A stretch of 64,000 nucleotides of DNA from an uncultured Candidatus Peribacteria bacterium. Its GTDB lineage: Bacteria; Patescibacteriota; Gracilibacteria; Peribacterales; Peribacteraceae. Positions 5,575 to 64,000 of this stretch are shown here, piece after piece (within the stretch, counting starts at the first letter, position 1; each line of letters starts with the position of its first letter). A model generated the notes under the pieces. It did not search any database and was not told the DNA's origin. It worked only from the letters and a program-made list of their open reading frames with translations. Where the stretch lies: contig CAZATU010000002.1 in assembly GCA_964488165.1 (NCBI GenBank), forward strand, positions 137,334-201,333. Direction: 5' to 3'. A program made the position numbers and the translations under genes.

Positions 5575-6855
5575 ATGCTGCATCTCGATATCGCCGGCAC
5601 GCTTGCCAAGCTCATCACGCCGACCCACGGCATCCCCGACCAGGAGCTTACCGGGCTGCGCACGGCCATGCGCCGCTACGTCGCCGACTGGCTCCAGGAG
5701 CGCCGCGACGGGCAGCACGGCTGGGCAATGTGCCCCTACAACAAGCGCGTGATCGCGGCGTGCGAGAAGGTTGCCGAAACCGCCAAAGCCGAACGCATCC
5801 AAACCGTCGTGTGGATCGGCATCGGCGGCTCGGGCCTCGGCCCGCGCGTCATCCAGGAAGTGCTCGAAAGCCCCAAGACCGTCGAATTCCTCGTGCTCGA
5901 CACGATGGACCCCACGCTGCTGGAACACTACGCCGAGCTGCTCGACTGGAAGAACACGCTCGTCGTGGTGGTGAGCAAATCCGGCAACACGCTCGAAACG
6001 ATGAGCGGCTTCTTCTACTGCTACGAGCTGCTCAAAGCTGCGCGCGGCGCCAAGGCGCATGAGCGGGTGGTGGCCATCTCCGACCCTACCGAGAACCCCC
6101 TGCATGCGCTCGCGCTCAAAGAACAATTCGCCTTCCTGCCGATCCCGCCGGATGTCGGCGGCCGCTACTCCGTGCTCTCCCCCGTGGGGCTCCTGCCCGT
6201 GGCGCTGCTCGGCGGCGACGTGGACGCGTTCGTGCGCGGCGCGCGCGACTTCGATGAGCTCACGCAGCAAACCGTCCTCGAGGAGAACCCCGCGGCCATG
6301 CTCGCCTGCGTGCAATTCCTGCTCGATACCAAGCGCAACTATCCGATCCGCGTGATCATGCCCTACGCCCAGCGCCTCTCCTCGCTCGCGCGCTGGAACC
6401 AGCAGCTCATCGCCGAAAGCCTCGGCAAGAACGAGCTGAGCAACCCGATTCCCATGGCCGCCATCGGCACGCAAGACCAGCACTCGCTCCTGCAGCAGTG
6501 GATGGCGGGGCCGCGCTCGCAGTGGCACCTGTTCATCCGCGAGCTGGAGCGCCCGCGCGTGCAGCTCCCCGAAACGCTCCCCAAGCCCTTCGATCTCTAC
6601 GCCGGCAAAACCTTCGGCCAGCTCATCGACGCGTGCTACGAAGGCACGAGCCGCGCGCTCCTCTCGGTGAAGCGCCCGTCGGTGACGATCTCCATCACCC
6701 GCCTCGACGAGTACCACTTGGGGCAGCTGTTCTTCTGCCTGCTCGCGGAAGTGGTGTTCCTCGGCAAGCTCTATCGCATCGACCCCTACGGCCAGCCCGC
6801 CGTGGAAATCGGCAAGACCATCACCAAGGAGCTCCTGTCACGCGGACGCGCGTAG
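5575..6855 (+). CDS. pgi: glucose-6-phosphate isomerase
   Basis: IGIGGSGLGPRV..., VVVSKSGNTLET, DVGGRYSVLSPVGLLP, GTQDQHSLLQQ: SIS/PGI family motifs. Confidence 0.85.
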   Translation: MLHLDIAGTLAKLITPTHGIPDQELTGLRTAMRRYVADWLQERRDGQHGWAMCPYNKRVIAACEKVAETAKAERIQTVVWIGIGGSGLGPRVIQEVLESPKTVEFLVLDTMDPTLLEHYAELLDWKNTLVVVVSKSGNTLETMSGFFYCYELLKAARGAKAHERVVAISDPTENPLHALALKEQFAFLPIPPDVGGRYSVLSPVGLLPVALLGGDVDAFVRGARDFDELTQQTVLEENPAAMLACVQFLLDTKRNYPIRVIMPYAQRLSSLARWNQQLIAESLGKNELSNPIPMAAIGTQDQHSLLQQWMAGPRSQWHLFIRELERPRVQLPETLPKPFDLYAGKTFGQLIDACYEGTSRALLSVKRPSVTISITRLDEYHLGQLFFCLLAEVVFLGKLYRIDPYGQPAVEIGKTITKELLSRGRA

Positions 6856-6908
6856 CACTCTGCGCTGCGCCGGAGTACACTCGCTCCCGTTCGCTTCCCC
6901 CCGCAATC

Positions 6909-7226
6909 ATGTCCAACGTCACCGACGCCACCTTTGATGCCGAAGTCCTCCAATCCTCGACCCCTGTCTTGGTCGATTTCTGGGCTCCGTGGTGCGGACC
7001 ATGCAAGGCGATGCTCCCCATCGTTGAGGAGCTGGAAAAGGAGTACACGGGCAAGGTGAAAGTGGTGAAGATGAACGTGGATGAAGAGAGCGACGTGGCC
7101 GGCAAATTCAACGTGATGAGCATCCCGACGTTTGCCTTTTTCAAAGGCGGCAAGATCGTCAAAACCATCGTGGGCGGCCGCTCGAAGCAGGACATGAAAA
7201 ACGAGCTCGAAGCACTCCTGGCATGA
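6909..7226 (+). CDS. trxA: thioredoxin
   Basis: VLVDFWAPWCGPCKAM active site; 105 aa typical length. Confidence 0.95.
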   Translation: MSNVTDATFDAEVLQSSTPVLVDFWAPWCGPCKAMLPIVEELEKEYTGKVKVVKMNVDEESDVAGKFNVMSIPTFAFFKGGKIVKTIVGGRSKQDMKNELEALLA

Positions 7227-7483
7227 AGTACATCCTCTGCACCGTCGGCATCGTGGGTTCGTTCTACCTGCTCAAGTACCGCGAGCGCGTGGGCGACATG
7301 GTGGGCGACGCGGAGTGGATGCGCTATGTAGGCGGGGTCTACGGCCTGGTGACGGTCGTCGCGCTCATCATCTTCTTCTGGAGTATCGCGGAGCTCACCA
7401 ACACAACGGAAATCCTCTTCAGCCCGCTGTTGATGATCTTGCCTGCGGGGCGGCAGGTTCCGGCGGATCAGGTGGTGTTCTAG
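7223..7483 (+). CDS. small two-helix membrane protein, unknown function
   Basis: ATGA overlap with the trxA stop; two hydrophobic segments (ILCTVGIVGSFYLL, VYGLVTVVALIIFFWSI). Confidence 0.5.
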   Translation: MKYILCTVGIVGSFYLLKYRERVGDMVGDAEWMRYVGGVYGLVTVVALIIFFWSIAELTNTTEILFSPLLMILPAGRQVPADQVVF

Positions 7484-7511
7484 GAGATGTAAAGAGGGGT
7501 ATATTTGCTCC

Positions 7512-8576
7512 ATGCCTATTCAGAATACTGTTTTTATCTTTGGCGCTGGTGCCTCCTACGATGTCATAGGAAATCACACTTTGCCAAACTATGAATATGG
7601 CAATAAGTGGAAGCCGCCACTAACTAAGGATCTTTTTAAATCCACACAGGAATTTGACGATCTGGTAATTAATTACCCAGAACTATCCATCTTAACAGGC
7701 GACGTGCGGCGAGCAGTACAAGAGAAAAATATGGATTTTGAGAGCTACATGATGAATGTTAAGCAGCTCTCGGAGACTAACCCACTGCGCCATAGGCAGT
7801 TAGTACAAATGCGCTTCTATTTGCGTGAACTTCTCAATGAATGTTCCAACAAATACGTATATACGGCCAACCAATATGGCACGTTAATTGCAAGGCTCTT
7901 AGACATAAAGGGGGCTGCGAAAATCACTTTTGTCAGCTTCAACTATGACACGCTATTGGAGCAGGCAATGATGGCATGTCGCTTATTACCAGAACGCCAT
8001 TCACTCTCTATGGCTTCATACATCCATGCTGATATCCCATTGATCAAGCCACATGGTTCGGTCCAGTGGATATATAAAATCCCCCGTGACCGATACTCTC
8101 CTCAGTTAGGATGGAACAAATGGCTATTTGAAGTGCTAGCAAAAATTGAACCAGATGTATCAAAAATACCGATTGATATCGACGTATACTGGAAAAGTCA
8201 TGGTGAAATGGGAAAATTCGATGAGAACAATTTCTATTATCCAGCAATCGCGATACCGCTAAACAAAAAAACTGAATTCCTGCTGCCAAGAGAACATCTT
8301 GGAACACTTAAGACAGCACTGGTTGAAGCTCAAAATATTGTAACAATTGGATGGCGTGGTGCCGAAGACAAATTCTGCAACCTCATGAAGGAATGCCTCG
8401 CTGACCGAAGGCACAATCTTCATGTTGTGACCGAAAACCTTCAAAGCGCACAAGAAATTTGCGACCGCCTCCAAATAAATTATCTTGAGCAATCTAGCTC
8501 TCTACCTCGTGGTGGAGGCTTTTCTAAATTTTTAACAAACTTTGACAACCAGCAACTAGCTTCGATGCTCTCCTAA
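7512..8576 (+). CDS. stand-alone SIR2_2-type (SIR2-like) domain protein, putative NAD-consuming effector
   Basis: FIFGAGASYD (GAGxS), FVSFNYDTLLEQ (NYD), LIKPHGSVQW (catalytic His), IVTIGWRGAEDKF (GYS.xD-like). The ORF is conspicuously AT-rich compared with both flanks. Confidence 0.8.
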   Translation: MPIQNTVFIFGAGASYDVIGNHTLPNYEYGNKWKPPLTKDLFKSTQEFDDLVINYPELSILTGDVRRAVQEKNMDFESYMMNVKQLSETNPLRHRQLVQMRFYLRELLNECSNKYVYTANQYGTLIARLLDIKGAAKITFVSFNYDTLLEQAMMACRLLPERHSLSMASYIHADIPLIKPHGSVQWIYKIPRDRYSPQLGWNKWLFEVLAKIEPDVSKIPIDIDVYWKSHGEMGKFDENNFYYPAIAIPLNKKTEFLLPREHLGTLKTALVEAQNIVTIGWRGAEDKFCNLMKECLADRRHNLHVVTENLQSAQEICDRLQINYLEQSSSLPRGGGFSKFLTNFDNQQLASMLS

Positions 8577-8648
8577 GCCGCTGCGGGGAAATGTAGGTAG
8601 CAGAGAAACTCCTGCCGCCCCCGCTTCGCTCTGACTTCGCCGGGGAGG

Positions 8649-8888
8649 CTATAGCCTCTTCTTCGCAAATGCCCGTCCTGCATGCGATTTCAAATATCGC
8701 TCAAAGGCAAACGCACGATCTCGGTTGGCAAATGCCACATAGCTCTTGAGTCGCCATTGTCGACCCTCTCTACGGGTATGCGCTGTATGCCCGGCGTTGT
8801 GCTGAAACATGCGGCGGTCGAGGTTATTGGTCAGGCCAACGTACCAATGGAGGCCATCGCAGGATTCCAGAATGTACACGTACTGCAT
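8649..8888 (-). CDS. GIY-YIG nuclease domain protein (UPF0213-like)
   Basis: MQYVYILESCDGLHWYVGLTNNLDRRMFQHN...: GIY-YIG core. Start set at the internal ATG 8888. Confidence 0.85.
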   Translation of the reverse strand: MQYVYILESCDGLHWYVGLTNNLDRRMFQHNAGHTAHTRREGRQWRLKSYVAFANRDRAFAFERYLKSHAGRAFAKKRL

Positions 8889-9014
8889 AGGTACATGATG
8901 AAAAGCCCGGCTCCGCTGCGCTGCGCCGCGGCATCCGGCTTCGTTCGCCCAACCTCGATTTGCACTACGGATCCATCGCGGCATAGTTCCGTTCAGCAAC
9001 GGAACGAAGCCGGA

Positions 9015-9090
9015 TGGTGGAGCTGAGGAGATTCGAACTCCTGACCCTCTGCTTGCAAAGCAGATGCTCTACCAACTGAGCTACAGCCCC
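9015..9090 (-). tRNA. tRNA-Ala (anticodon TGC), CCA encoded
   Basis: Reverse complement GGGGCTGTAGCTCAGTTGGTAGAGCATCTGCTTTGCAAGCAGAGGGTCAGGAGTTCGAATCTCCTCAGCTCCACCA. Cloverleaf folds; G3:U70 identity pair; loop TTTGCAA. Confidence 0.95.
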
Positions 9091-9170
9091 ACAGGGTTAC
9101 AGTGATGATGGGAAAGACTCGGTCCGAGCACGGTATCTTCTGCTAGCGCGCCTCGCAAGCTGCGGCGCGG

Positions 9171-9191
9171 CCAACTGAGCTACAGCCCCAC
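9171..9191 (-). repeat. 21-nt exact duplicate of the tRNA-Ala 5' end (plus 2 nt upstream of it)
   Basis: ccaactgagctacagccccac occurs at 9072-9092 and again at 9171-9191. The second copy is not followed by a foldable tRNA body. Confidence 0.9.
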
Positions 9192-9225
9192 GTACGCGGG
9201 ATAGTACACAAAAACAGCGAAGTCA

Positions 9226-10374
9226 TCACGTCACAATTTCATGCAAACGCTGCTCACGCGCGGCGTCGCGGATTTCCTGCGCAATACGGTCCCCCATCGT
9301 CATCGGGCGGCCATGCAGGTAGCGCGAGTACGGCGTCGCGGCGATGCCCGGGCAGGTGGTGGGGCGGAAGCAGATGCCAAACAGCACGATGTCCTCGCGG
9401 CTGTTCTCCGACACGATGGCGCCCTGCAGCGTAAACGACCCGATCATCCCCTTGCCCGTGGGGTCGATCTCGCGCGGGAGCGACTGCGTGATACTGATGA
9501 AGTCCTCGCCGATATCAAACGCGCGCTCCAGGAGCGACTCGCGCAGCGTGCTCGGGATGTGCCCGATCTCCACCATCTGCAACGGCACGTGGTCGAGGGC
9601 GATCTTCTGCTGCGACGGCGTCATGCGCTGGAAGCCCTCCAGGTTAGTCTGGCGGCGGATATCGATGCCCAGCAACTCCAGCTCGCTGCGCAGCGGCGAG
9701 AAGAAGAAGTGGAAGTTCACCGGCGAACCGATGATGTATTCCTCGATGATGGCGTTTTTGAGGTCTTTCTCCGTGATTTGGCGCAGCTTGATGCGGCGGG
9801 CGGCCTCCTCGTCGAAGCTCTCTTTGTCCCACGCAAGGAAGAACACGCGCTCGTAGCCGCGGAGATCTTCTTTGACCTTCACGATGGAAAGCCGATCGAT
9901 CTGCGACGGGTCATTGAAGCGCTGCGGGATGCGGATGCCCGCTTCGGCAAGCAGGTCGCGGCTGGTGTAGGGCTGGTTGCGGCCTTCGAGGCGCAGCAAT
10001 GAACGCGACCCGAAGATCGGCACGTTGAATTGCTCCTCAATGGACGTGAAGCTCGGGAAGCGCCTCCAGAAATCCTTGCTCTGCACGAAGATCGTGTTGG
10101 CCGTGCGCAGGCGCTGCTGCAGGTCGGGGGCGAGGATGTCGGGGAATTCCTCCACGGCGATCACGTCATCGATGCAGCCCACCATCTCTTCGCCGCTCCT
10201 GCGGGTGCGGTAGTGCTTGGCGTAGAGCGAATCGCGCCCTTCGTGCGCCACGATGAGTGTTTGCATGCCGGCATCCTTGGCGCCGGAAGCGATGTCGAGT
10301 GCGTTGCGCCCGCCAAAGCAGCCCACCGTGAGGCGCGAAACGTCATAGCCGTCGAGGAGCTTCGCGGTATCCAA
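9226..10374 (-). CDS. purP: 5-formaminoimidazole-4-carboxamide ribonucleotide (FAICAR) synthetase, archaeal PurP type (ATP-grasp)
   Basis: VGCFGGRNALDIASGAKDAGMQTLIV..., IEEYIIGSPVNFHFFFSPLRSELELLGIDIRRQTNLEGF..., GSFTLQGAI: matches the PurP (DUF1246/DUF1297) family pattern from memory. Confidence 0.75.
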   Translation of the reverse strand: MDTAKLLDGYDVSRLTVGCFGGRNALDIASGAKDAGMQTLIVAHEGRDSLYAKHYRTRRSGEEMVGCIDDVIAVEEFPDILAPDLQQRLRTANTIFVQSKDFWRRFPSFTSIEEQFNVPIFGSRSLLRLEGRNQPYTSRDLLAEAGIRIPQRFNDPSQIDRLSIVKVKEDLRGYERVFFLAWDKESFDEEAARRIKLRQITEKDLKNAIIEEYIIGSPVNFHFFFSPLRSELELLGIDIRRQTNLEGFQRMTPSQQKIALDHVPLQMVEIGHIPSTLRESLLERAFDIGEDFISITQSLPREIDPTGKGMIGSFTLQGAIVSENSREDIVLFGICFRPTTCPGIAATPYSRYLHGRPMTMGDRIAQEIRDAAREQRLHEIVT

Positions 10375-10429
10375 GACGCGGGCAGTCTAGCGGTCTCGTC
10401 AAAAAAAGAAATGCCCTTTGGAATCATGG

Positions 10430-10504
10430 TGGAGGTGCCGGTGGGAATCGCACCCACGCATGGGGGTTTTGCAGACCCCTGCCTTACTACTTGGCTACGG
10501 CACC
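10430..10504 (-). tRNA. tRNA-Cys (anticodon GCA), CCA encoded
   Basis: Reverse complement GGTGCCGTAGCCAAGTAGTAAGGCAGGGGTCTGCAAAACCCCCATGCGTGGGTGCGATTCCCACCGGCACCTCCA. Loop CTGCAAA; discriminator U73, typical of Cys. Confidence 0.9.
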
Positions 10505-11979: not shown

Positions 11980-14415
11980 ATGCGCAATACCTTCGCACGA
12001 TTCCTCATCGCCGCGACGCTCGCACTGTCGCTTCCGATCGGCGCGCTCGGCGCGATCCGCATCGACATTGAAGACACGGTCGCGGGCCTCGGAGCAACGG
12101 CGTTCGCCCCCGATCTTCCGACGGGCGCCGATGCGCAGGCGGTCTTCGGCATTCCCGGCGGCGGCGAGCGCACGGTGCGCGTTGAACGCGGCGCCGACGG
12201 TGCCGCCCGCGCCGACCTCGCTGCATCCGACAGCACCAAGGCTGGCTCGTACACCGTGGAGTTGCGCGCAGGCGCTTCCGTCCTCGGCGCGGCGAGCTTC
12301 ACCGTGGTGCCCGACAGCGTCGACGCCGCCATGTCCGACGTCCGCATCGACCGCAGCGTCATCGACACCGACGGCGCAGACGCCGCCACCGTCACTGTCA
12401 CCCTGCGCGACCGCTACGGCAACGCGCTGACAGGCCGACCCGTCACGCTCGTCGCCAGCCGCAAGAGCGACCAGGTAGAACCCGTCGAACCTCAGACCGA
12501 CGCCAGCGGTTCGCAGCGCTTCTACGTGTACACCGACATGCCCGGCCATCTGTCGCTGCGCGCCATCGACCTCTTAAGCGGCGTCGTGCTCGAGTCCACC
12601 GCCGAGATCGACGCGGGCAACCCGCGCGCCGTCGGCGGCACGTACGACTACTACGCGCCCCAGGCCCCCGTCTACGCCCCGTACCCCTCGCCCTACGCCT
12701 CCTACGCGCCGCCCGCGGACACGCGCACGTTCTACACCGACGGACGCCGCGCGCCGTCGTACGGCAACTTCCTCGGCCAAGTGACGGGCACGTTCGACGT
12801 CGTCGACCACTTCGAGGTGACGGCCCCCGCCGAGCTGCCCATCGACGAAGAGGCGCCCAAGATCACGCTGCGCGCCGTCGACCGCCAGGGTCGCAGCGTC
12901 GAGAACTACCTGGGCACGGCGGTGTTCACCTCCACCGACCCCGACGCCATCCTGCCCAACTTCGGCGAATACACCTTTAAGGAGCGCGACCTGGGGCAGA
13001 AGGAATTCCCCCTCGTGCTGCGCTTCAAGACGCCGGGCGCGCAGACCGTACGCATCGAGGACAAGACCGACCCCAGCATCCGCGGCGAAGCCACAATCAA
13101 CGTCGCCAGCGGCGGCGACTCCGGCGCGGCCGGCACCATCGTCATCACCTCGCATAAGGACGGCGACGTGGTGAGCACGACCGATATCACCATCAAGGGC
13201 ACCGGCCCGGAATACACGAACCTCACCGTCATGGGCGGCACGCGCGACGTGCAGAGCGACACCGACGGCATCGGCAATTTCGAAGCCGTGATCCAGCTCG
13301 CGCCCGACCAGCAGGACTTCACGATCCGCGTACGCGACGACCAGGGCAAATTCGACTCCGGCCCCTTGCACCTGGTGCTCGACAAGAACCCTCCTGAGGT
13401 CGGCGCCATCACCTTCGACCCCTCGGAGCCCGAGGAAGGCGAAAACGTGCTCGTGCGCGTAGAAACGGACCCCGACCTGCCCAAAGTGGTCTTCCTTCTG
13501 GATGACGCGACGGCGGACCGTCCCACGGCGACCCTGACGGCGAACCCCGACGACGCGCGTATCTACCAGGCGTTCTTCCCCGCCCCCGGCCCCGGCGAGC
13601 ACCAAGTGAGCATCATCGCCAGCGACGCCTCCGGCAACCCGCGCGAAGTGCGCGCGGTGCTCGTGGTGAAGACGCGTGGCCTCCCGGTGGTGGCCGGCCT
13701 TACGGCCCAGGCGCGCACCAACGCCGTAGCGCTCCAGTGGGACCCGGTACCCGAGCAAGTGACGGGTTACCGCGTGTACGTCGGTGAACAGGAAGGCACC
13801 TTCGACTACAGCCTCGACACGGGCCGCCCCGTCACCAAGGCCACGGTCGCGGGTCTCCGCCCCGGCACAACCTATTACTTCGCCGTCACCGCGCTGCGCG
13901 ACACGATGGAGAGCATGGAAAAGAGCCAGGTGCTCAACGTGCAAACGCCGGGCCTCACCCTGCGCATCCGCGAGGGCGACACGGCCATGCGCCTCGAATG
14001 GGAATTCCCCGACGACATTGAGCTCAGCGGCTTCCTGCTCCAGTACCACGTCGACGGCGACGAAGACGTGCAGGAAGAGCGCCTGCTCGAAGGCAGCGCC
14101 CGCACCTACACCCTCCGCGACCTCTTCAACGGCTACGCCTACGTCGTGCGCCTTACACCGATCTCCGTGACGGGCGACCGCCTCGACGAGTTGAGTGCCG
14201 AAGTGACGGGCACGCCCAACGGCCCGGCAAACGGCTTCCGCGCCGGACCCTCCGACCCCGCTCCGTTCAACCTGGCCGCAGCCGTGCTCCCCCGCGTCCC
14301 CGAACACTCGCAGGAAGGCCTGCCGTCGATCATCGTGATCGGCGTGATCGGCGCCGCCACGATGGCAGTGCTGTATCGCTCGCGCCGGAAGGTATACTCG
14401 CAGCGTCCTCGCTGA
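11980..14415 (+). CDS. large cell-surface protein with Ig-like (Big) and fibronectin-III-like repeats and a C-terminal TM anchor
   Basis: N-terminal signal MRNTFARFLIAATLALSLPIGALGA. DAATVTVTLRDRYGNALTGRPVTLVAS (Big_1-like). VTGYRVYVGEQEGTFDY...YYFAVTAL (FN3-like). C-terminal IIVIGVIGAATMAVLYRSRRK. Confidence 0.75.
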   Translation: MRNTFARFLIAATLALSLPIGALGAIRIDIEDTVAGLGATAFAPDLPTGADAQAVFGIPGGGERTVRVERGADGAARADLAASDSTKAGSYTVELRAGASVLGAASFTVVPDSVDAAMSDVRIDRSVIDTDGADAATVTVTLRDRYGNALTGRPVTLVASRKSDQVEPVEPQTDASGSQRFYVYTDMPGHLSLRAIDLLSGVVLESTAEIDAGNPRAVGGTYDYYAPQAPVYAPYPSPYASYAPPADTRTFYTDGRRAPSYGNFLGQVTGTFDVVDHFEVTAPAELPIDEEAPKITLRAVDRQGRSVENYLGTAVFTSTDPDAILPNFGEYTFKERDLGQKEFPLVLRFKTPGAQTVRIEDKTDPSIRGEATINVASGGDSGAAGTIVITSHKDGDVVSTTDITIKGTGPEYTNLTVMGGTRDVQSDTDGIGNFEAVIQLAPDQQDFTIRVRDDQGKFDSGPLHLVLDKNPPEVGAITFDPSEPEEGENVLVRVETDPDLPKVVFLLDDATADRPTATLTANPDDARIYQAFFPAPGPGEHQVSIIASDASGNPREVRAVLVVKTRGLPVVAGLTAQARTNAVALQWDPVPEQVTGYRVYVGEQEGTFDYSLDTGRPVTKATVAGLRPGTTYYFAVTALRDTMESMEKSQVLNVQTPGLTLRIREGDTAMRLEWEFPDDIELSGFLLQYHVDGDEDVQEERLLEGSARTYTLRDLFNGYAYVVRLTPISVTGDRLDELSAEVTGTPNGPANGFRAGPSDPAPFNLAAAVLPRVPEHSQEGLPSIIVIGVIGAATMAVLYRSRRKVYSQRPR

Positions 14416-16125: not shown

Positions 16126-17448
16126 ATGCGCGGCACCCACATGCCCCGACTGCCGTCCCGCATCATCGTGCCCATCGCCTTCGCCGTGGTCTGCGCCGTC
16201 GGCATCAGTGGCGTTTTGACGTGGCAGGCAGGCCGCACGCGCGCGCTCCTTGGCAGGCAGCTCGTCGCCATCCGCACGCAGGAGCAGGCCGATGACGTCC
16301 CCCTGGAAACGCTCCCAGCCGAAGATATCAAAGACGCTGCGCTCAACGCGCTGCGCGAGGGCGACCTCGCCGCGCTCGAGGGCGATTGGAAGCGCGCACA
16401 AACGCTCTACCAGCGCTCAGTCGACGCGCGAGGCGGCGTGCCCGCGCTGCGCAAACTCATGCAGGCGCAGCTCCAGCGCCGCGATATCCCCGCCGCCCGC
16501 GAAACGCTCACGCGCCTCAAGCTCGCAGGCGCCCGTCCGGAAGACGTCACGCTGCTGGAAGCGCTCATGCTGCTGCGCACGGGCGAGCTGCAGCAGGCGC
16601 AGCAATTCCTCAACACTGCCGACGAATCGCCGCAGCGTTCCTACGGAGAAGCGCTCCTGAGCATCGTGCAAGGCAGCCACGAAGCGGCGCAGACATCGCT
16701 CCATGCCGTGGAAAACGGTTGGGACCCGATCCTCCGCGCCAACGCGCGGATTTTGATGGGCGCGTACGAGGAGTACAGCCTCTTCCCCGAAAGTCCGAAC
16801 ATCCACCTCATCGCCCTGCTCTCGCGCGCACTCGCCCAGGTGCACGAATGCGAGCTGGCGCTGCCGCTGCTCTCGCAGGTCACCCGGCAGCAGGATGACT
16901 ACCGCGACGCATGGATCGTCCAGGGCTACTGCGAGCTGACCACCGAACGCCTGCCCGAAGCACTGTCATCGTTCGAGCGCGCGTACGCCCTCGACCCGGA
17001 GAAGCCCGAAACGCAGTTCTTCCTCGGGCGCACCTACGCCGCCCAAGGCGACCATGCCAGCGCCCTCACGTTCTTCCAGTACGCACTGAAAAACGGCTTC
17101 CAACCGGAGGCCGATGCGCGCCGCGCCATCGCCAAAGCAGCCTTCGCCTCGGGCAACACCACCGATGCGCTGGAGCAATACGATATCCTCACCGCCGCCC
17201 CCGACGCCGAACCGGCGATCTTCGAGGAATACGCCGACGTCGCGCTCAGCGTCCACCTCATCGAAGAAGCCCTCGCCCGCTCGACCACCGCCACCGAACG
17301 CTGGCCGAACAACGCCCGAGTCTGGTTCCTGCTGGGGCGCACCGCCGTGCTCGCCGACAAGCGCGACAGAGCCCGCTCCGCGCTGGAAAAGGCACTGGAA
17401 ATCGACCCCGACTTCACCGCCGCGCGGGCAGCACTCCAGGCGCTCTAG
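16126..17448 (+). CDS. membrane-anchored TPR-repeat protein
   Basis: N-terminal TM IIVPIAFAVVCAVGISGVL followed by repeated TPR-like A..Y..AL..DP segments. Confidence 0.7.
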   Translation: MRGTHMPRLPSRIIVPIAFAVVCAVGISGVLTWQAGRTRALLGRQLVAIRTQEQADDVPLETLPAEDIKDAALNALREGDLAALEGDWKRAQTLYQRSVDARGGVPALRKLMQAQLQRRDIPAARETLTRLKLAGARPEDVTLLEALMLLRTGELQQAQQFLNTADESPQRSYGEALLSIVQGSHEAAQTSLHAVENGWDPILRANARILMGAYEEYSLFPESPNIHLIALLSRALAQVHECELALPLLSQVTRQQDDYRDAWIVQGYCELTTERLPEALSSFERAYALDPEKPETQFFLGRTYAAQGDHASALTFFQYALKNGFQPEADARRAIAKAAFASGNTTDALEQYDILTAAPDAEPAIFEEYADVALSVHLIEEALARSTTATERWPNNARVWFLLGRTAVLADKRDRARSALEKALEIDPDFTAARAALQAL

Positions 17449-44508: not shown

Positions 44509-46752
44509 GTGGAGAGAACGAGCGACGACACAATTTTGGCCCCTCTGAATCCGCCCCAGCGCGAAGCTGCGACGAAAACCAGCGGACCTTTGCTGATCCT
44601 TGCGGGTGCCGGCTCGGGCAAGACACGCGCGCTTACCCATCGCATCGCGCATTTGCTCTCGCAGGGCGTGCAGCCGTGGCAGATCCTCGCGGTCACCTTT
44701 ACGAACAAGGCGGCAACGGAGATGAAAGAGCGTGTGCGCCACCTGCTGCAGATCTTGGACCCGGCCGATCAGGATTTGGAATTCGCCAGTCGTTCGTCAC
44801 GCTTGCCGGTCATGGGCACGTTCCACTCGATTTGCGTGCGCATCCTGCGGCGCGACGTGGAGAAGATCGGCCGCGAACGATCGTTTGTCATCTACGACAG
44901 CGACGACCAAGAGCGGCTCATCAAAAGCATGCTCAAGGAGCTGCATATCGACGAATCGGTGGTCAAAGCCCGCCCGGCGCTCAGCGCCATCAGCCGGTTC
45001 AAGTCCGAAGCGCTCAGCCCGCAGGAAGCCATGAAGCAAGCGACGAGCGACCGCATGCAGGCCATTGCCCGCGCCTATGCGTCCTACGACCGCGAGCTGA
45101 AGCGCGCCAATGCCATGGATTTTGATGATCTCATTCTCGAAACCGTGCATCTCTTCCACGAATGTCCGGACGTGCTCGATCGCTACCAGGAAACCTGGCG
45201 CTACCTGCACGTCGATGAGTATCAGGATACCAACCACACGCAGTATCTCTTCATCACCATGCTCGCGCAGAAGTATCGCAACCTCTGTGTGATCGGCGAC
45301 CCCGACCAATCGATCTACGGGTTCCGCGGCGCGGACATCCGCAACATCCTGGAATTCGAGAAGGAATACAAAGACGCCGGGCATATCAAGCTCGAGCAGA
45401 ATTACCGCTCCACGCAACCGATCCTCACGGCTGCCGACGTCGTGATCTCCGCGAACCCCAACCGCCCGGAGAAGCAGATGTGGACGGACCGCAAGGACGG
45501 CGCGAAGGTACTCGTGCACGAAGTGGCCGACGAGCGCGCCGAAGCCGACGAGATCGTACGCTCTGTGGAGCGCCACCGCTCCGAAGGCATGCCACTCAGC
45601 AGCCAGGTGGTGCTCTACCGCACGCACGCGCAATCGCGCACCATCGAGGAATCCTGCATGCGCCGCGGCGTCCCCTACCGCATCCTCGGCGGCACCAAGT
45701 TCTACGGCCGTCGCGAAGTGAAAGACGTCCTCGCCTACCTCCACGCATTGCTCAACGTCGACGACACGGTATCGCTCCTGCGCATCATCAACGTACCGGC
45801 GCGCAAGATCGGCGATAAGACGCTCGAACGCCTCCAGGGCTTCGCCGCCATGAACGGGCTCACCGTCTGGGGGGCGCTCCAGCGGGTCAACGAAGTCCCC
45901 GAGCTCGACAGCGGCACCATCGGCCGCATCACGAAATTCGTCGGCATCATCGAACGCGCCCAGGAGCTCGCCAAGGTGCAGCCAGTGAGCGATGTTGCGG
46001 CGCACGTCATCGAGGCCGCGGGCATCGAGGCGTGGCTGCGCGACGGCACCGAAGAGGGCGAGGAACGCTGGCAGAACGTGCTCGAACTGCAATCGGTGAC
46101 GCGGAAGTACGACCGCCTGGAGCCCTTCCTGTCGCTCGTGAGCTTCCTCGAAGAAGTGAGCCTCGTGGCCGAAACCGACAAGCTCGGCAACGGCACGGGC
46201 GACGCCCTCACGCTCATGACCGTGCACCTCTGTAAGGGCCTCGAATACGAGCACGTTGCGGTGTCGGGCTGCGAGGAAGGTATCTTCCCCCACGCCAACA
46301 GCCTCTACGACCGCGAGCAGCTCGAAGAAGAGCGGCGCCTCATGTACGTGGCGATGACCCGCGCCAAATCGCACCTAACGCTCCTGCTGACGCGCAACCG
46401 CATGCTGTGGGGCGAGCGGCGCCAGAACAGCCCAAGCCGTTTCCTCGAAAATCTACCCGAAGCGGTCACCGAGCGACGCAGCGATGACGTGCTCAGCGCC
46501 TTTGCATGGGCGAGCAAACGCGGCGCGGAGAAGATCGGCCCTGCCGCCACTCGCTGGAACGAGTTCGACCAAACACCTTCCCACGAAGCGGAAGGCAGCC
46601 AGATCGACGTGGACGAAGGCGCGCGCGTCGAGCATCCGTCCTTCGGCGCGGGCACGGTGCTCTCGCGGCGTGGCGACGTGGTGGACATCCGCTTCGACGC
46701 GGGTCAGAAGAAGACCTTCGCCCTCTCCATCGCCCCGCTCAAAGCGCTCTAA
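44509..46752 (+). CDS. pcrA: ATP-dependent DNA helicase PcrA/UvrD (SF1)
   Basis: LNPPQREAA, AGAGSGKTRALTHRIAHLL, VDEYQDTN, GDPDQSIYGFRGA, LEQNYRS, VLYRTHAQSR, MTVHLCKGLEYEHV, LMYVAMTRAK. GTG start. Confidence 0.92.
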   Translation: MERTSDDTILAPLNPPQREAATKTSGPLLILAGAGSGKTRALTHRIAHLLSQGVQPWQILAVTFTNKAATEMKERVRHLLQILDPADQDLEFASRSSRLPVMGTFHSICVRILRRDVEKIGRERSFVIYDSDDQERLIKSMLKELHIDESVVKARPALSAISRFKSEALSPQEAMKQATSDRMQAIARAYASYDRELKRANAMDFDDLILETVHLFHECPDVLDRYQETWRYLHVDEYQDTNHTQYLFITMLAQKYRNLCVIGDPDQSIYGFRGADIRNILEFEKEYKDAGHIKLEQNYRSTQPILTAADVVISANPNRPEKQMWTDRKDGAKVLVHEVADERAEADEIVRSVERHRSEGMPLSSQVVLYRTHAQSRTIEESCMRRGVPYRILGGTKFYGRREVKDVLAYLHALLNVDDTVSLLRIINVPARKIGDKTLERLQGFAAMNGLTVWGALQRVNEVPELDSGTIGRITKFVGIIERAQELAKVQPVSDVAAHVIEAAGIEAWLRDGTEEGEERWQNVLELQSVTRKYDRLEPFLSLVSFLEEVSLVAETDKLGNGTGDALTLMTVHLCKGLEYEHVAVSGCEEGIFPHANSLYDREQLEEERRLMYVAMTRAKSHLTLLLTRNRMLWGERRQNSPSRFLENLPEAVTERRSDDVLSAFAWASKRGAEKIGPAATRWNEFDQTPSHEAEGSQIDVDEGARVEHPSFGAGTVLSRRGDVVDIRFDAGQKKTFALSIAPLKAL

Positions 46753-57277: not shown

Positions 57278-57889
57278 ATGCGCCGAAACGTTCTGATCGG
57301 CATTGCCGCCGTCATTGTTCTTTGCGGAAGCTGGTGGCTGCTGAGCCCCCTCTTCTTCGACAAGACGATCAATGAGGCGTCGCCGGGGCAGGAACTCACG
57401 GACGCCGAACGCGATCTCCTCCAGCGCATCGAACAGCTCACGCCGCAGCAGATGGAACGCATGCCAGCAAAGCAGCGCGAGGAGACCGTGCGTACCTTCG
57501 CCACATTGCAGGAAAAAATGCCTGCCGTGCGCACGAATGACCCGGCGCCGAAGCAGGAGACAGCTATCCTTGCGCACGGCGCCCTGCGCGACGGCGACGC
57601 CCTGCACAAAGGCGCGGGAGAAGCTGCGATCCTGCGCTTGCGCGACGGCGCGCTCGTGCTGCGGCTCAGCGACCTTCTGCTCACCAACGGACCGGCGCTG
57701 CACGTCTACCTCACCGTGGATGAAAATGGCGGCACCGACAGGGGCTTCGTCGACCTCGGCCCCCTCAAAGGCAACCGCGGCAACCAGAACTACGACATCC
57801 CGGAAGAGGTCGAAATCTCCCAATACAAAGGGTTGGCAATTTGGTGCGTGCCGTTCGGCGTGCTCTTCGCCTCGGCGCGATTGTTGTAA
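57278..57889 (+). CDS. DM13 domain protein with N-terminal TM anchor
   Basis: HKGAGEAAILRLRDGALVLRLSDLLLTNGPALHVYL...LKGNRGNQNY...AIWCVPFGVLF matches the DM13 pattern. Confidence 0.7.
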   Translation: MRRNVLIGIAAVIVLCGSWWLLSPLFFDKTINEASPGQELTDAERDLLQRIEQLTPQQMERMPAKQREETVRTFATLQEKMPAVRTNDPAPKQETAILAHGALRDGDALHKGAGEAAILRLRDGALVLRLSDLLLTNGPALHVYLTVDENGGTDRGFVDLGPLKGNRGNQNYDIPEEVEISQYKGLAIWCVPFGVLFASARLL

Positions 57890-57989
57890 AGCCCGAGAAA
57901 TTGTGTTTCTAAGACAATAAACAATCCGATGTTAAATCCTCTTGCGCCTACGAGGCAGCAGGAATAGAACGGTCCGGCCTCTCACGGCT

Positions 57990-59312
57990 ATGGATACTGG
58001 GAACCTCATCCAGTATTGGCTGCCGATCGTGGTCTTCGGCTTCGTCTTCGCCGGAGTCCTGCTCGAACTCACGGAAAAATCGCTCATCACGGCGATCGGC
58101 GCGTTCGTGCTGATTCTCCTGCACAGTATCGATCAACATGACGCGTTGGCTATGATCGATTTTGATACGCTGACGCTCCTCTTCGGCATGATGATCGTGG
58201 TCGAAGTAGCTGCCAAAGCTCGTCTTTTCGAATGGCTGAGCATTGTCATCCTCCAGCTGACAAAAGGCAGGCCGCTACTCATCTTTGTGCTCTTCATGGC
58301 CAATACGCTGGTGCTGTCGTCGTTCCTCAATAACGTCACGACGATTCTCATCATGCTGCCACTGACGATCGAAATCGCGAAGGGCATCGGCCTCAACATG
58401 CGCCCGTTCGTCATCGGTGAAATCATTGCAGCGAATATCGGTGGCCTGCTCACGCTCATCGGCGACCCCGTCAATACCATTGTGGGCTCCGCGGCGGATC
58501 TTGGCATGACATCTTTTACGATCAATCTGGGCATCCCCGTCGTCATCATCGCCTGTGCTACCACGTTCTTCCTCTGGGCGACGGACAAAACATCGTTCGC
58601 GGATATTCGAACCGATTTCGTCAAAGTGCTCCATAACCTGCTTGTCCTGAAAAACGTGGAAAACCGCTTCAAGAGCCTGCCATTCGACGTCACGTTGCTG
58701 CGCATCGCCATCGCCTGCCTCGCGCTCACCATCGGCGCATTTATCGCCGCGGAGCCTCTCGGCCTTTCCCCCGGGCTCATTGCGATGATCGGTGCGACGG
58801 GCGCGATGATCGCCACACATCACCGCGTGCCCTTCAGCACGATCATTGGCGGCATCGAATGGCAAACGCTGCTCTTTTTCGGCGGGCTGTTTGTCGTTGT
58901 GGGGGCAGTGGAACAAACCGGCGTACTGGAGCAAATGGCCAACGGCATCGTCGCAATAACCGCGCATCCGGCTTCGTTGCTGGCGATTATTTTGGTCAGC
59001 ACCGCCGTGATTTCGGCAATCGTCGACAACGTGCCGTTTGTCACGCTGATGATCCCCATCATCCGCTCGATCCAAGAGCAAAGCATCTTCCCCGACGGAT
59101 CAGTGCTGTGGTGGGCGCTGTGCCTCGGCGCTGTCATCGGCGGCCTGGCATCGCCGTACGGCTCTTCGGCGAATATCGTTGCGGTCGGCACGGCGCGCAA
59201 AGCGGGATACAAGCTCAGTAATGGAACCTACATGCTCTACAGCGTGCCGATTTCCATCGGCGGCATCCTCGTAAGTTACGCCTACCTTGCCATCGCCTAC
59301 CTCCGCCCATGA
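57990..59312 (+). CDS. ArsB/NhaD-superfamily anion permease
   Basis: 10 or more TM helices; LSSFLNNVTTILIMLP and GGLLTLIGDPVN repeats typical of the CitMHS/ArsB fold. Visibly lower GC than the surroundings. Confidence 0.75.
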   Translation: MDTGNLIQYWLPIVVFGFVFAGVLLELTEKSLITAIGAFVLILLHSIDQHDALAMIDFDTLTLLFGMMIVVEVAAKARLFEWLSIVILQLTKGRPLLIFVLFMANTLVLSSFLNNVTTILIMLPLTIEIAKGIGLNMRPFVIGEIIAANIGGLLTLIGDPVNTIVGSAADLGMTSFTINLGIPVVIIACATTFFLWATDKTSFADIRTDFVKVLHNLLVLKNVENRFKSLPFDVTLLRIAIACLALTIGAFIAAEPLGLSPGLIAMIGATGAMIATHHRVPFSTIIGGIEWQTLLFFGGLFVVVGAVEQTGVLEQMANGIVAITAHPASLLAIILVSTAVISAIVDNVPFVTLMIPIIRSIQEQSIFPDGSVLWWALCLGAVIGGLASPYGSSANIVAVGTARKAGYKLSNGTYMLYSVPISIGGILVSYAYLAIAYLRP

Positions 59313-61522: not shown

Positions 61523-62398
61523 TTACGGGCGCTTCGCCTGCCGCAGCGCGACGCCTGGCATGAGACGCGCGATTTTGGCGCGCAATTGGTCGGCCTTGGC
61601 TTGCGACAATGTCACGGAAACAGTAAACGGCGCGGGGATATCAAGGATGTTCTCAAACACCGCAGCGTCCCAATCGCGCGCCGTGCGCACGCTGCGAAAC
61701 AGCAGCACGAGGTGATCGGCGATGGCCTTCGGGAAGACGCATTCCACGACGTACGCGCCGAAGACGTTGAGGTTGTAGCCCTCTTTGGGGAACGGCGAAT
61801 GATCGGTGAGCGCGATGGCGAAGATTTTTTTGAAACGCTCCATGGCTCGGCGGTCGAGAAACGTGTCGTTGCCGATGAGCCAGGAACAGGCAACCCCGCG
61901 CGCCGCGATGCGCTCGTAAAAGGAAGCGTCCCCGCCCTTGTCCTGCAACAGCCACCACGCGTGGGCGTAGTACTTGTGCAGTTCCCGACGCTCGGCGGCC
62001 GGAACGATGCGGTTGAGCTGAATGAGTAAGTTGTGCCACACGGCCTGCATCTCGCGCATCGACCGGGCGGAAAACGTGACACGCTTGCCCTCTTCGAGCG
62101 AAGACAGCGCATGCACGTCAGCGCCTTCGAGCAATTGTTGTTTGGCGCTCTGGGCGAAAAGTTCGATGTGAGAAAGCCAGAGTAGGTTGAGCGACAACTG
62201 GCGTTTGCGCTTGATCAGAATCTGCGCCTCAACGAGGCGCGTCACCGTGCGGTACACATGCTGCAGCGACACATCGATGCCCGCGTGCTGCTTGAGTCGC
62301 TTGCGGACGTCCGCGATGGAAATGCCGGGATGCTCGGCAACGATTTCGACCGTGGCGTTGAAAAGCGGCGTCAGTGGATCTAAGCAGAACATATTCAC
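61523..62398 (-). CDS. hypothetical protein with N-terminal winged-helix-like segment
   Basis: ISIADVRKRLKQHAGIDVSLQHVYRTVTRLVEAQILIK resembles a wHTH; the rest is unknown. Confidence 0.55.
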   Translation of the reverse strand: MNMFCLDPLTPLFNATVEIVAEHPGISIADVRKRLKQHAGIDVSLQHVYRTVTRLVEAQILIKRKRQLSLNLLWLSHIELFAQSAKQQLLEGADVHALSSLEEGKRVTFSARSMREMQAVWHNLLIQLNRIVPAAERRELHKYYAHAWWLLQDKGGDASFYERIAARGVACSWLIGNDTFLDRRAMERFKKIFAIALTDHSPFPKEGYNLNVFGAYVVECVFPKAIADHLVLLFRSVRTARDWDAAVFENILDIPAPFTVSVTLSQAKADQLRAKIARLMPGVALRQAKRP

Positions 62399-62416
62399 AT
62401 TATAGGTGAATTCCTA

Positions 62417-62433
62417 TTCCACTGGAAGTGGAA
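62417..62433. promoter_or_regulatory. palindrome in the divergent intergenic region (possible operator)
   Basis: TTCCAC-TGGAA-GTGGAA lies between the divergently transcribed 61523..62398 (-) and 62515.. (+). Confidence 0.35.
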
Positions 62434-62514
62434 ATATTTTGCTGCAAAGAGCCACCTTTTCGACATCAACAGAACATAGCATGAAATCGGTTTCTATTTC
62501 TTAACAACATTTGT

Positions 62515-64000
62515 ATGGAACCGATTGATCGCTCCACCACCGGCATGAACGCTCTGGAAATACTGGCGGATTCCATGGCATCGCTCGAGCAGCGAGAAAC
62601 CCCGCTGAATCAACGGCGATTGGCTGTAGCGATCCATGTGCGAACGGCCCTGGAGACGCTCTCTTCGGATGACAGAAACGTCCTGGAAACGCTGCTGGAA
62701 GCACGAGGTGTCGCCGGTGTCGCCATTGATCGCATCTTGTCGCTCCCCCCGCCAAAGGCCATGAACACGCCTTCATTGCCGTTTGCGCACAGCGAACGCT
62801 ACCAAGTGCTCGCCGCGTCCATGACGCCCCGCGAGGGCTTTTCGCCCGAGCGCCCGAACTACCCCCAGGGCGTCGCTCCGCACCTTGATTCACATCATGA
62901 CCAGCTGACGCAGCTGATCAATGCCGGCAGCATTCCTGCGGAATTCGCCTCAACATTGCGCCTCTTCATTGAGTTGCATGATCGCGGCTACGCAGGGCGA
63001 ACCGATGTCTTACAGGCAGACGAGTTCGCAGCAGCAGCCGACGAGTACACGGCGACATATGTGACGATGGGCGCCTCCAAGGATCAAGCCGATCGGATGG
63101 CGGAGTACGTGCTTGCCGGCCTGCGCGCCACCGACAATCCCGTGAAGCAACACCTCGTCGGACGGGTCATCGGTCATGGCGTGAACAGCGTTCGTTTCGG
63201 CCGTGCCGTGCTCGCCGACGAAGGCGGCATGAGCCCCGAGCGGGCAGATGCACTAGCCACGCTTTTCGCTACGCATCATTTGGGCTACCCCCTGACGCCC
63301 TTGGTCGACGGCTTCGCAAAGGCCATGGGAGGTGAGATACCCCCAGACTTACGCTCCACGTTCTTGGTTGGTGGGGCTCCGGCTGATGCAACGCTCCCAG
63401 GGGCAAAGCGTGAGGAAATCAGCCAGGACCGCGCCGATGCCATCCGAGCCGAAATCGCCGACCGCGTGGCTCCGACGCTCGGCATCAGCACTGCCGATGC
63501 GCGCGCCATTGCCGTGCTCGCCTACGCACTCGACCGTACCTCACCCGCTCGGCGCATGCGTACATTCTCGCTCGCAGAAGATGACTCCATAACATGGGCG
63601 GGCGGTGAAACACAAAAGAAATATCCGCTCATCGTGGGCGATATCAATGCTGCTTACGGCAACGCCGCCATCCGGCAGAAACCCGAAAAGCATGTAAAAA
63701 CTGTCTATAACATCGCTTCGGTGCAATACGGCAAGGAGCGTGACGCCGCCATCCGCACGGCGCGCAACCTGGGCGTCACGGGCCTGGAAGAAGTGATCCG
63801 CGAGCATGCCGCCCGCGAAATAGCCGCCACTATCGATGTGCAACGCCGTGCCATTGGCATTGCCGACCGGATGGGCGCGGGCTCATTCGCCACGATCGAC
63901 GCCGACATCGCGCGCATCACGGAAGAATACCGTCGCGCATCGCAAAACCCCGAAGATACGGACGATATTGATGCCCTCGGCTACTTGCTCGGCACGCTCC
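62515..64000 (+). CDS. large hypothetical protein, N-terminal 495 codons (runs off the right edge)
   Basis: Hand translation from ATG 62515 (MEPIDRSTTGMNALEILADSMASLEQRETPLNQRRLAVAIH...) shows no stop up to 64000. Absent from the ORF track because it is edge-truncated. Confidence 0.7.
   Translation, partial: MEPIDRSTTGMNALEILADSMASLEQRETPLNQRRLAVAIHVRTALETLSSDDRNVLETLLEARGVAGVAIDRILSLPPPKAMNTPSLPFAHSERYQVLAASMTPREGFSPERPNYPQGVAPHLDSHHDQLTQLINAGSIPAEFASTLRLFIELHDRGYAGRTDVLQADEFAAAADEYTATYVTMGASKDQADRMAEYVLAGLRATDNPVKQHLVGRVIGHGVNSVRFGRAVLADEGGMSPERADALATLFATHHLGYPLTPLVDGFAKAMGGEIPPDLRSTFLVGGAPADATLPGAKREEISQDRADAIRAEIADRVAPTLGISTADARAIAVLAYALDRTSPARRMRTFSLAEDDSITWAGGETQKKYPLIVGDINAAYGNAAIRQKPEKHVKTVYNIASVQYGKERDAAIRTARNLGVTGLEEVIREHAAREIAATIDVQRRAIGIADRMGAGSFATIDADIARITEEYRRASQNPEDTDDIDALGYLLGTL

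Follow-up and report, generated by a model that had tools for sequence, protein, structure and literature searches.

A stand-alone SIR2-like gene of low GC content at a tRNA-Ala hotspot in Candidatus Peribacteria, and the partner-less family to which it belongs

Introduction

The DNA considered here is a stretch of 64,000 nucleotides from an uncultured Candidatus Peribacteria bacterium (assembly GCA_964488165.1, contig CAZATU010000002.1), referred to as the window. At positions 7512..8576 of its plus strand lies a stand-alone open reading frame (ORF) of the SIR2 superfamily, which starts with ATG and continues in an uninterrupted frame for 354 amino acids (aa). It is followed by a small gene of the GIY-YIG nuclease family and by a transfer RNA (tRNA) gene for alanine, both on the opposite strand, and the rest of the window is devoted to core metabolism and translation (RelA/SpoT, ValRS, PNPase). 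A first-pass annotation made from the sequence had singled out this ORF as an AT-rich islet that could be a compact defence module or an orphaned effector. Judged by its sequence, the ORF is undamaged and reached this genome by horizontal transfer, as a recent import; it belongs to a large family of small SIR2 proteins, for which a role in defence appears plausible. Below, the gene, its product, its family and its genomic setting are described in turn, and the possible functions are weighed where the evidence bears on them.

A low-GC gene in a high-GC contig

The guanine-plus-cytosine (GC) content of the ORF is 0.421, compared with 0.436 for the region 7484-8648 and 0.627 for the whole window. 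Among sliding windows of 1065 bp (mean 0.627, standard deviation 0.040) the one starting at 7501 has the lowest value of all, 0.420, about five standard deviations under the mean. Besides this islet, 500-bp windows with a GC content below 0.51 are absent across the 64 kb; two mild dips at 57801-58400 and 62101-62800 (0.52-0.53, likewise in 500-bp windows), which alone depart further from the mean of the window, are far weaker. Read in 50-bp steps, the GC content drops from 0.58 (7451-7500) to 0.38 (7501-7550) at the left junction, and at the right junction it climbs from 0.38 (8501-8550) through 0.54 to 0.68 (8601-8650). The shift in composition therefore coincides with the ORF borders, just as had been remarked at first reading. 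The GC content at codon positions 1, 2 and 3 of the ORF is 0.50, 0.34 and 0.43, respectively, while the third-position value (GC3) of native neighbours is 0.77 for trx, 0.90 for the adjoining small ORF and 0.86 for purP, and about 0.6-0.9 for the remaining ORFs of the window.

An abrupt change of 20 points exactly at the gene borders of a metagenome-derived contig could also be produced by an assembly chimera or by a contaminating low-GC stretch, an explanation that we regard as highly improbable. An independent Logan assembly contig (L084; 2,555 bp, two samples) is 100% identical to positions 6490-9044 of the window and crosses both GC junctions, which makes a chimera unlikely. Moreover, low-GC copies of the family are also present in other Peribacteria metagenome-assembled genomes (MAGs; loci L004 and L053), and the site itself is a demonstrated variable hotspot in related genomes, as described below.

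The encoded protein and its active site

The four motifs on which the ORF had been assigned to SIR2_2 are all present in its translation (G11AGAS15, N144YD146, K179PHGS183 and G280WRGAED286, the last sharing residues with an IGWRG motif at 279-283), and both the fold and the family profile agree with that assignment. The formal Pfam criterion, however, is narrowly missed: SIR2_2 (PF13289) scores 22.2 bits (E=1.6e-4) over profile positions 3-67 of 141, under a gathering threshold of 24.5. This sub-threshold score, together with a precomputed PF13289 match in about 40% of the homologs listed, places the family at the edge of the SIR2_2 model, and the assignment rests on motifs, profile and fold, a formal Pfam match being absent. 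The SIR2 models of PADLOC reach the protein only at E ~1e-3, searches of NCBIfam and PHROGs returned nothing, the classical Pfam SIR2 model (PF02146) does not match at E<=0.01, and single-sequence searches of PDB sequences gave noise only.

Conservation was judged on an alignment of 43 sequences that are 25-48% identical to the query. Invariant throughout are G11-A-G-A-S15, P36, N144, Y145, D146, K179, H181, G182, S183 and W186, as well as G280 and the two prolines (P244 and P249) of a PAIAIP strand; W281 of IGWRG is nearly so. The equivalents of the catalytic Asn and His, whose conservation the first-pass annotation had left to be checked, are thus retained in every homolog of the alignment as N144 and H181.

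An AlphaFold model built on the alignment (predicted local distance difference test score 91.4, predicted template modelling score 0.92) depicts a single continuous Rossmann-type SIR2 domain, with strands at residues 5-10, 137-142, 182-191, 240-246, 273-279, 302-306 and 329-333, a helical insertion at about 46-132, and loop regions rich in indels and modelled with lower confidence (about 21-30 and 190-240). In a Foldseek comparison with the PDB the model matches SIR2 folds, including that of BcThsA, with which a comparison had been proposed. The SIR2 subunits of SIR2-HerA from E. coli and other hosts rank first (E=4e-8, template modelling score ~0.5) and are followed by the sirtuins SIRT2/3 and CobB, the SIR2-STAND protein EfAvs5 and BcThsA. 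PDB matches at E<=1e-3 number 129, of which the best 50, those listed, are without exception chains of the SIR2 family.

The family profile leads to the same group of proteins. Its best PDB match is PsSIR2 (8w9l, E=1e-8), aligned over FNYDxLxE...KxHGSxxW, followed by the E. coli protein 8j4u (E=3e-4) and by weak matches to KomC and ThsA. In the latter alignment (E=0.09) residues 107-156 of ThsA (6lhx) correspond to profile positions 140-182, so that N144 and H181 fall on N112 and H152 of ThsA. Mutation of N112 to alanine in ThsA has been reported to abolish both NAD (nicotinamide adenine dinucleotide) depletion and defence; in DSR2, mutations of N133 and H171 end defence, and a mutated SIR2 active site ends NAD depletion. 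The Asn/Asp/His triad of the family and its N-terminal glycine-rich loop of the NAD pocket (GAGAS) align with residues that ThsA and DSR2 need for defence and for NADase activity. A Zn-binding Cys4 module is absent from the protein, which has five cysteines (111, 156, 289, 295 and 317) and no CxxC pair. With invariant residues, profile matches and predicted fold in agreement, the protein is a genuine, though divergent, enzyme of the SIR2 superfamily; its active-site signature is intact, and the SIR2_2 branch of the defence type is the one nearest to it.

A large family of single-domain SIR2 proteins

A word search retrieved 360 homologs, nearly all of 330-380 aa, the best of them 48% identical to the window protein. 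When 1.84 billion representatives were searched exhaustively with the profile, there were 8,505 matches at E<=1e-3 and 2,113 at E<=1e-30; the latter are clusters at 50% identity, and it is in this sense that the family has about 2,100 members. The best 150 of the 2,113 representatives are all full-length (314-484 aa). The family thus consists of single-domain SIR2 proteins of about 345 aa, the architecturally simplest SIR2 form, and it has no name yet: its members are annotated as 'hypothetical protein' or, at most, 'SIR2-like', and neither a dedicated model in Pfam, NCBIfam or PADLOC nor a solved structure was found for it.

Scanning one genome per species yielded 80 loci, distributed over Acidobacteriota (Bryobacterales), Actinomycetota, Chloroflexota, Bacteroidota, Bathyarchaeia, lineages of the candidate phyla radiation (CPR) and others; the CPR hosts include Peribacteria, Paceibacterota, Kaiser-, Taylor- and Adlerbacteria, and Saccharibacteria. 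Cultured hosts are also represented, namely Nocardioides marmorisolisilvae KIS18-7 and Aeromicrobium sp. MLTX1. The distribution is patchy. Homologs consistently at native GC content and tied to housekeeping loci would have spoken against the interpretation in the first-pass annotation; instead, the family gene lies under the GC content of its locus in 44 of the 47 loci of at least 12 kb (94%), and in 49% of these 47 loci it is among the lowest 5% of windows of the same length. The three Peribacteria copies (the window, L004 and L053) share only 27-35% identity with one another and each is 17-21 GC points under its host, which implies independent acquisitions.

A source in phages or plasmids was considered and rejected, the family being nearly absent from the corresponding collections. 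Viral sources gave one weak match among 2.9 million viral contigs and no PHROG match, tblastn searches of phage and plasmid collections gave no family match, and matches among viral structures were to generic sirtuins only.

Two variants within the family deserve mention. The Peribacteria homolog of L004 (about 7990-9149; 35% identical to the window protein, GC content 0.40 against 0.57) lies in a low-GC patch adjoining a gene for a trypsin-like/SLH protein and a tRNA-Phe gene. Its frame, which begins ...ICIKNIVFIFGAGAS, is open back to GAGAS, and a start codon (ATG, GTG or TTG) is lacking up to codon ~100; this may reflect a non-canonical start or a recently inactivated copy. The Bacteroidota homologs of L024, L052, L057 and L063 are 450-464 aa long owing to an N-terminal extension of about 100 aa. 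Such extensions were considered as sensor domains and rejected, as no Pfam domain was found in them, and those of P0291, P0302 and P0318 resemble over-extended ORFs.

Genes next to the family members

At 62 homolog loci all ORFs within 5 kb on each side were clustered, and the 107 immediate neighbours were scanned with Pfam and PADLOC. No neighbour family recurs across these loci except lepA in four Bryobacterales genomes, and no conserved small ORF (25-130 aa) lies within 700 bp of the family genes, which leads us to reject both a conserved partner protein and a small ORF of the toxin-antitoxin kind. HerA, TIR, pAgo (prokaryotic Argonaute), SLOG and STAND do not occur as conserved neighbours in the 62 loci. 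The observation that the window gene stands alone, with no HerA, TIR, pAgo or SLOG partner, consequently holds at the locus itself and across the family. A tRNA within 2 kb of the family gene was seen in only a few of 58 loci, and tRNA adjacency was rejected as a family trait.

A few loci place the gene in the company of defence functions. The strongest case among those seen is P0034 (353 aa), which sits inside a type I restriction-modification operon in the order hsdM-KilA-N-hsdS-[gene]-hsdR, its genes abutting or overlapping at their borders; two assemblies show this arrangement (L095, 3433-11157; L096, 244-7968). P0046 is cargo of an integrase island: a tRNA-Arg gene, an integrase gene and the gene for an AAA_21 ATPase of 947 aa precede it, and genes for toxin-antitoxin and type IV secretion systems are close by. 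P0007 adjoins DUF4357 and TaqI_C genes. The defence-type members of the immediate neighbour set are two AAA_21/AriA-GajA-like ATPases, one type I specificity subunit and one mad5 of the MADS system; the contexts of P0034, P0046 and P0007 were noted individually, in addition to this set.

The lepA arrangement is of a different kind. In L006, L018, L021 and L046 (species-level genomes of Bryobacterales/Terriglobia) the family gene begins no more than a few nucleotides from the stop of lepA, which lies directly upstream, and the pair is possibly co-transcribed. Two further arrangements were seen in single lineages or loci. The homologs of L024 and L063 are directly preceded by a gene for a P-loop ATPase of about 390-400 aa, and the Bacteroidota homologs with such an ATPase may form a two-gene subtype. 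In L089 a DUF5677 gene (1372-2211) overlaps the stop of the SIR2-like gene (P0003, at 47% identity one of the homologs closest to the window protein) by 4 nt; the arrangement looks operonic, and this pairing was found in none of the other loci.

The tRNA-Ala hotspot

The gene for tRNA-Ala(UGC) is at 9015..9090 on the minus strand (ARAGORN; Rfam 75.7 bits), and its 3' end, at 9015, faces the segment that carries the GIY-YIG and SIR2-like genes. Core genes lie on either side. On the left, a small hydrophobic, probably membrane, protein of 86 aa (7223..7483, plus strand), whose start overlaps the stop of trx, belongs to the conserved flank. On the right, purP (9226..10374, minus strand) encodes a PurP-type formate-dependent FAICAR synthetase of archaeal type, recognised by Pfam (DUF1246/DUF1297), and is accompanied by a tRNA-Cys gene (10430..10504, minus strand). 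PurP shares 70% identity with its counterpart in one Peregrinibacteria MAG and is kept in many Peregrinibacteria and Peribacteria MAGs at 50-70% identity; by these homologs the host is a CPR bacterium of the Peregrinibacteria/Peribacteria type.

Among relatives with a contig that could be used, the nearest (locus L085, PurP 70% identical) retains both core blocks, RuvA-PGI-Trx-small ORF and purP-tRNA-Cys-M23 peptidase-TP-methylase. Its homology to the window fades in the last ~10 codons of the small membrane protein (about 7440-7483), and the variable segment of the window therefore extends over about 7484-9014 and holds two unrelated genes, SIR2-like and GIY-YIG. The description of the islet as a single-gene island accordingly needs amendment: the SIR2-like gene is foreign, but it shares the variable segment with a second gene.

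In L085 the space between these core blocks is taken up by a tRNA-Ala(UGC) gene and by about 5 kb of DNA with a GC content of 0.39-0.51, which encodes a short-chain dehydrogenase and an Mrr-type (Mrr_cat) nuclease besides unknown proteins. Inside this island, at 14005-14021, the 3' end of tRNA-Ala recurs as a direct repeat of 17 nt, 2.25 kb from the tRNA gene (16275-16350); the repeat looks like a boundary of the attachment (att) type and suggests tandem accretion of islands. A second Peregrinibacteria relative, L087 (PurP 60% identical), has only purP, tRNA-Cys and tRNA-Ala in common with the window, the far flank lying beyond the end of its contig. Here, a low-GC island of about 6 kb lies downstream of purP, and at its border the gene for a 519-aa large serine recombinase (Resolvase/Recombinase/Zn_ribbon_recom; 8795-10400) abuts or ends inside tRNA-Ala(UGC). 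The islands of L085 and L087 differ in content, both abut the 3' end of tRNA-Ala(UGC), and the Mrr-type nuclease is the only known defence gene found in either. The site is a variable hotspot at the 3' end of the tRNA gene whose content varies among relatives, and tRNA-Ala(UGC) is likely its anchor.

In the window, the traces of such traffic are of another sort. No recombinase or integrase is encoded in 7484-9014. An att-type direct repeat bounding the islet was also rejected: within 7201-8700 the best match to the tRNA-Ala 3' end is 9 nt long. Relative to L085 the tRNA-Ala(UGC) gene is inverted. In addition, a partial copy of its 5' half (GTGGGGCTGTAGCTCAGTTGG, exact over 21 nt; 83% over 35 nt) occupies 9157..9191 on the minus strand, 99 nt upstream of the intact gene and just past the purP stop; neither ARAGORN nor Rfam calls it as a tRNA, and it may be the scar of a rearrangement at the hotspot. 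The absence of an integrase and of an att repeat, the inverted tRNA and the partial tRNA copy together suggest past rearrangement at a recombination hotspot.

The second gene of the variable segment is read as an ORF of 116 aa at 8649..8999 on the minus strand (GIY-YIG, Pfam PF01541, E=1.6e-14). Since Met38 (MQYVYILES...) is where the domain begins, the gene is probably 8649-8888 and its true product about 79 aa long. The first-pass annotation rightly placed the SIR2-like gene next to it and to tRNA-Ala; it is not, however, a functional partner of that gene. The two genes are convergent, and none of the other family members has a homolog of it nearby: a tblastn search that covered all fetched loci recovered it from L084 alone, a contig of the same DNA as the window, and it is not present in the syntenic relative L085. 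A role as partner or as mobility module was rejected on this evidence. Its GC3 of 0.59 lies between those of the host and of the SIR2-like gene, and this intermediate value suggests a separate, older acquisition.

The spacers around the SIR2-like gene were also inspected. Upstream, 28 nt (7484..7511, plus strand) contain a purine-rich, Shine-Dalgarno-like GAGGGG about 12 nt 5' of the ATG, and a promoter scan called no sigma-70-like promoter upstream of the ORF. Downstream, a GC-rich spacer of 72 nt (8577..8648; folding z-scores -0.15 and +0.40), delimited by reading the sequence, separates the convergent SIR2-like and GIY-YIG genes. A terminator or structured RNA in the spacers was rejected, since they fold no better than shuffled sequence and Rfam matches only the two tRNAs. 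A perfect 11-nt inverted repeat, GGGGCGGCAGG at 7447-7457 and CCTGCCGCCCC at 8611-8621, flanks the SIR2-like ORF, its left arm being located where homology to L085 stops. Its empirical frequency is about 0.01 among equally spaced 100-nt pairs of the window; as cassette terminal repeats, however, the two arms were discarded as probably due to chance, because around 62 homolog genes neither inverted nor direct repeats are more frequent than in shifted controls. Elsewhere in the window, all strong PADLOC matches (GajB and RTasHel models) come from a single UvrD/PcrA-type helicase gene at 44509-46752 on the plus strand, which was rejected as a defence system and is regarded as a housekeeping helicase.

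This setting invites the view that the SIR2-like gene is an orphaned or decaying remnant, the last cargo of a larger tRNA-Ala element, either inert or dependent on a partner that was lost or is encoded elsewhere. An integrase and an att repeat are gone from the window, relatives carry larger islands with a recombinase or an att-like repeat at the same tRNA, and the partial tRNA-Ala copy is scar-like; in a few homologs (L002, L030) a P-loop ATPase is immediately upstream, and the L004 homolog lacks a canonical start codon. We nevertheless consider a remnant improbable. The ORF has its full length and has lost none of the residues that are invariant in the family, its very low GC content implies recent arrival and not long decay, and the rest of the window is housekeeping. 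The whole family, furthermore, is partner-less in the 62 loci, and nothing need therefore have been lost; for this reason the notion of an orphaned effector, put forward at first reading, is unlikely.

Relation to known SIR2 proteins

The SIR2 subunit of SIR2-HerA (Nezha; 8sub, 8suw, 8uae, 8wld, 8w9l) is the best match to the window protein both by profile and by whole-chain fold. The two have in common a length of about 350-400 aa, a single SIR2_2-type domain without a Zn module, and the GAGxS, NYD and HGS motifs. In contrast to SIR2-HerA, a HerA gene is found neither beside the window gene nor beside any of the 62 homologs. The resemblance is also a distant one, with an identity of only 12-15%, a root-mean-square deviation of about 8 A and a PADLOC E-value of ~1e-3, and the PPL, PAIAIP and IGWRG motifs, located outside the aligned SIR2-HerA core, are specific to the family of the window protein.

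With ThsA of Thoeris the protein shares the SIR2 catalytic core, including the correspondence of N144 and H181 described above, and BcThsA is among the Foldseek matches. Unlike ThsA, it has no SLOG domain, the whole 354 aa forming one SIR2 domain, and no TIR gene (ThsB) is nearby; Pfam and PADLOC match neither SLOG nor TIR in the protein or in its flanks. DSR1 and DSR2 are likewise single genes built on SIR2, and the catalytic Asn and His are essential in DSR2. DSR proteins are, however, about 1,000 aa long and possess a large C-terminal sensor region, whereas the window protein has 354 aa and no extra domain; no DSR model of PADLOC is matched, and no DSR chain appears among the PDB sequence matches or the top fold matches. 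DSR2 has been shown to bind the phage tail tube. Finally, SPARSA/SIR2-APAZ-pAgo and Avs5 differ from the window protein in that the latter has neither a fusion nor a pAgo or STAND neighbour.

Comparison with classical sirtuins (CobB, SIRT2/3; PF02146) bears on whether the protein is immune at all. They have the Rossmann SIR2 fold in common with it (Foldseek E ~1e-5 to 1e-6), and the SIR2 triad is shared by deacylases and ADP-ribosyltransferases. It could thus be a non-immune, NAD-dependent ADP-ribosyltransferase (of proteins or of small molecules) or deacylase that acts on a host target in regulation or stress adaptation, and its gene an ordinary accessory gene. The mostly housekeeping genes that flank the homologs, the lepA synteny kept in four Bryobacterales genomes, the blindness of PADLOC to the protein and the near absence of the family from phage, plasmid and viral collections would all fit such an enzyme. 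We judge it unlikely all the same, though less so than a remnant. The Zn-ribbon Cys4 and a PF02146 match are both missing, a helical insertion takes the place of the small domain of sirtuins, and in profile as well as in fold the protein stands nearer to SIR2_2 NADases of the defence type than to sirtuins. Unlike sirtuin genes, moreover, the gene is accessory, low in GC and patchily distributed; patchiness, low GC content in 94% of loci and independent acquisitions within one order argue for an accessory or conflict gene with fast turnover, and P0034 is embedded in a type I restriction-modification operon.

A possible role in conflict with phages

The nearest relatives of the protein, in sequence and in fold, are anti-phage NADases, and its catalytic residues are kept; its family is accessory, low in GC and patchy, its gene occupies a variable hotspot, and homologs such as P0034, P0046 and P0007 are found in suggestive contexts. 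These observations point to a role in conflict or defence. In the reading that we favour, with a confidence about evenly balanced between acceptance and doubt, the protein would be a self-contained effector of conflict or defence that depletes NAD+ when triggered by infection, sensing being achieved through its variable insertions or its oligomeric state. According to this model, the protein would consume NAD+, as an NADase or as an ADP-ribosyltransferase, and would be held inactive until its SIR2 domain is acted on directly by a trigger, such as a phage protein or a change brought about by infection. The hypervariable insertions at residues ~17-34 and ~190-240 are candidate trigger surfaces; alternatively, the switch could lie in the oligomeric state. 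Activation would lead to depletion of NAD+, and the infection would be aborted. The GIY-YIG gene would be an independent passenger of the same hotspot and no component of the SIR2-like system.

Several points weigh against a self-contained effector of this kind. Defence-type genes are immediate neighbours in only about 4 of the 62 loci, as a raw count, and the other neighbours are ordinary (lepA, GAPDH, HSP70/GrpE, aldehyde dehydrogenase, epimerases and transposases) and mostly housekeeping; enrichment in defence islands is therefore not demonstrated. The lepA synteny of the four Bryobacterales genomes looks like stable vertical inheritance. The PADLOC models leave the protein unrecognised, their SIR2 matches remaining at E ~1e-3. 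An Asn/His triad does not by itself imply NADase chemistry, because deacylating sirtuins share it. Finally, an NADase without a sensor raises a problem of regulation.

A stronger version of the effector model is that the family represents a new, minimal single-gene anti-phage system, in which recognition of the trigger and depletion of NAD+ are both accomplished within one SIR2 domain, by way of its hypervariable insertions or of triggered oligomerisation. The system would be favoured in the reduced genomes of CPR bacteria and in soil Acidobacteriota. We put this version forward only tentatively, as a possibility on the doubtful side.

Concluding remarks

To our knowledge, the SIR2-based immune systems described so far pair the NADase with a sensor or activator, be it SLOG together with TIR, HerA, pAgo, STAND or a large C-terminal domain, and we know of no SIR2-only system of the present type, in keeping with the negative searches of PADLOC, NCBIfam and Pfam. 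Should the family turn out to consist of housekeeping ADP-ribosyltransferases or deacylases instead, it would still amount to a large branch of that superfamily which lacks annotation, that of SIR2. Its occurrence in the cultured Nocardioides and Aeromicrobium strains named above provides hosts that are open to study. If, on the other hand, the family defends cells, it would represent the smallest SIR2 defence architecture, the SIR2 domain alone, and how a bare NADase stays silent and then switches on would become a question in its own right. The small genomes of CPR bacteria and Peregrinibacteria have few recognisable defence systems, and to these a compact immune gene would then be added.

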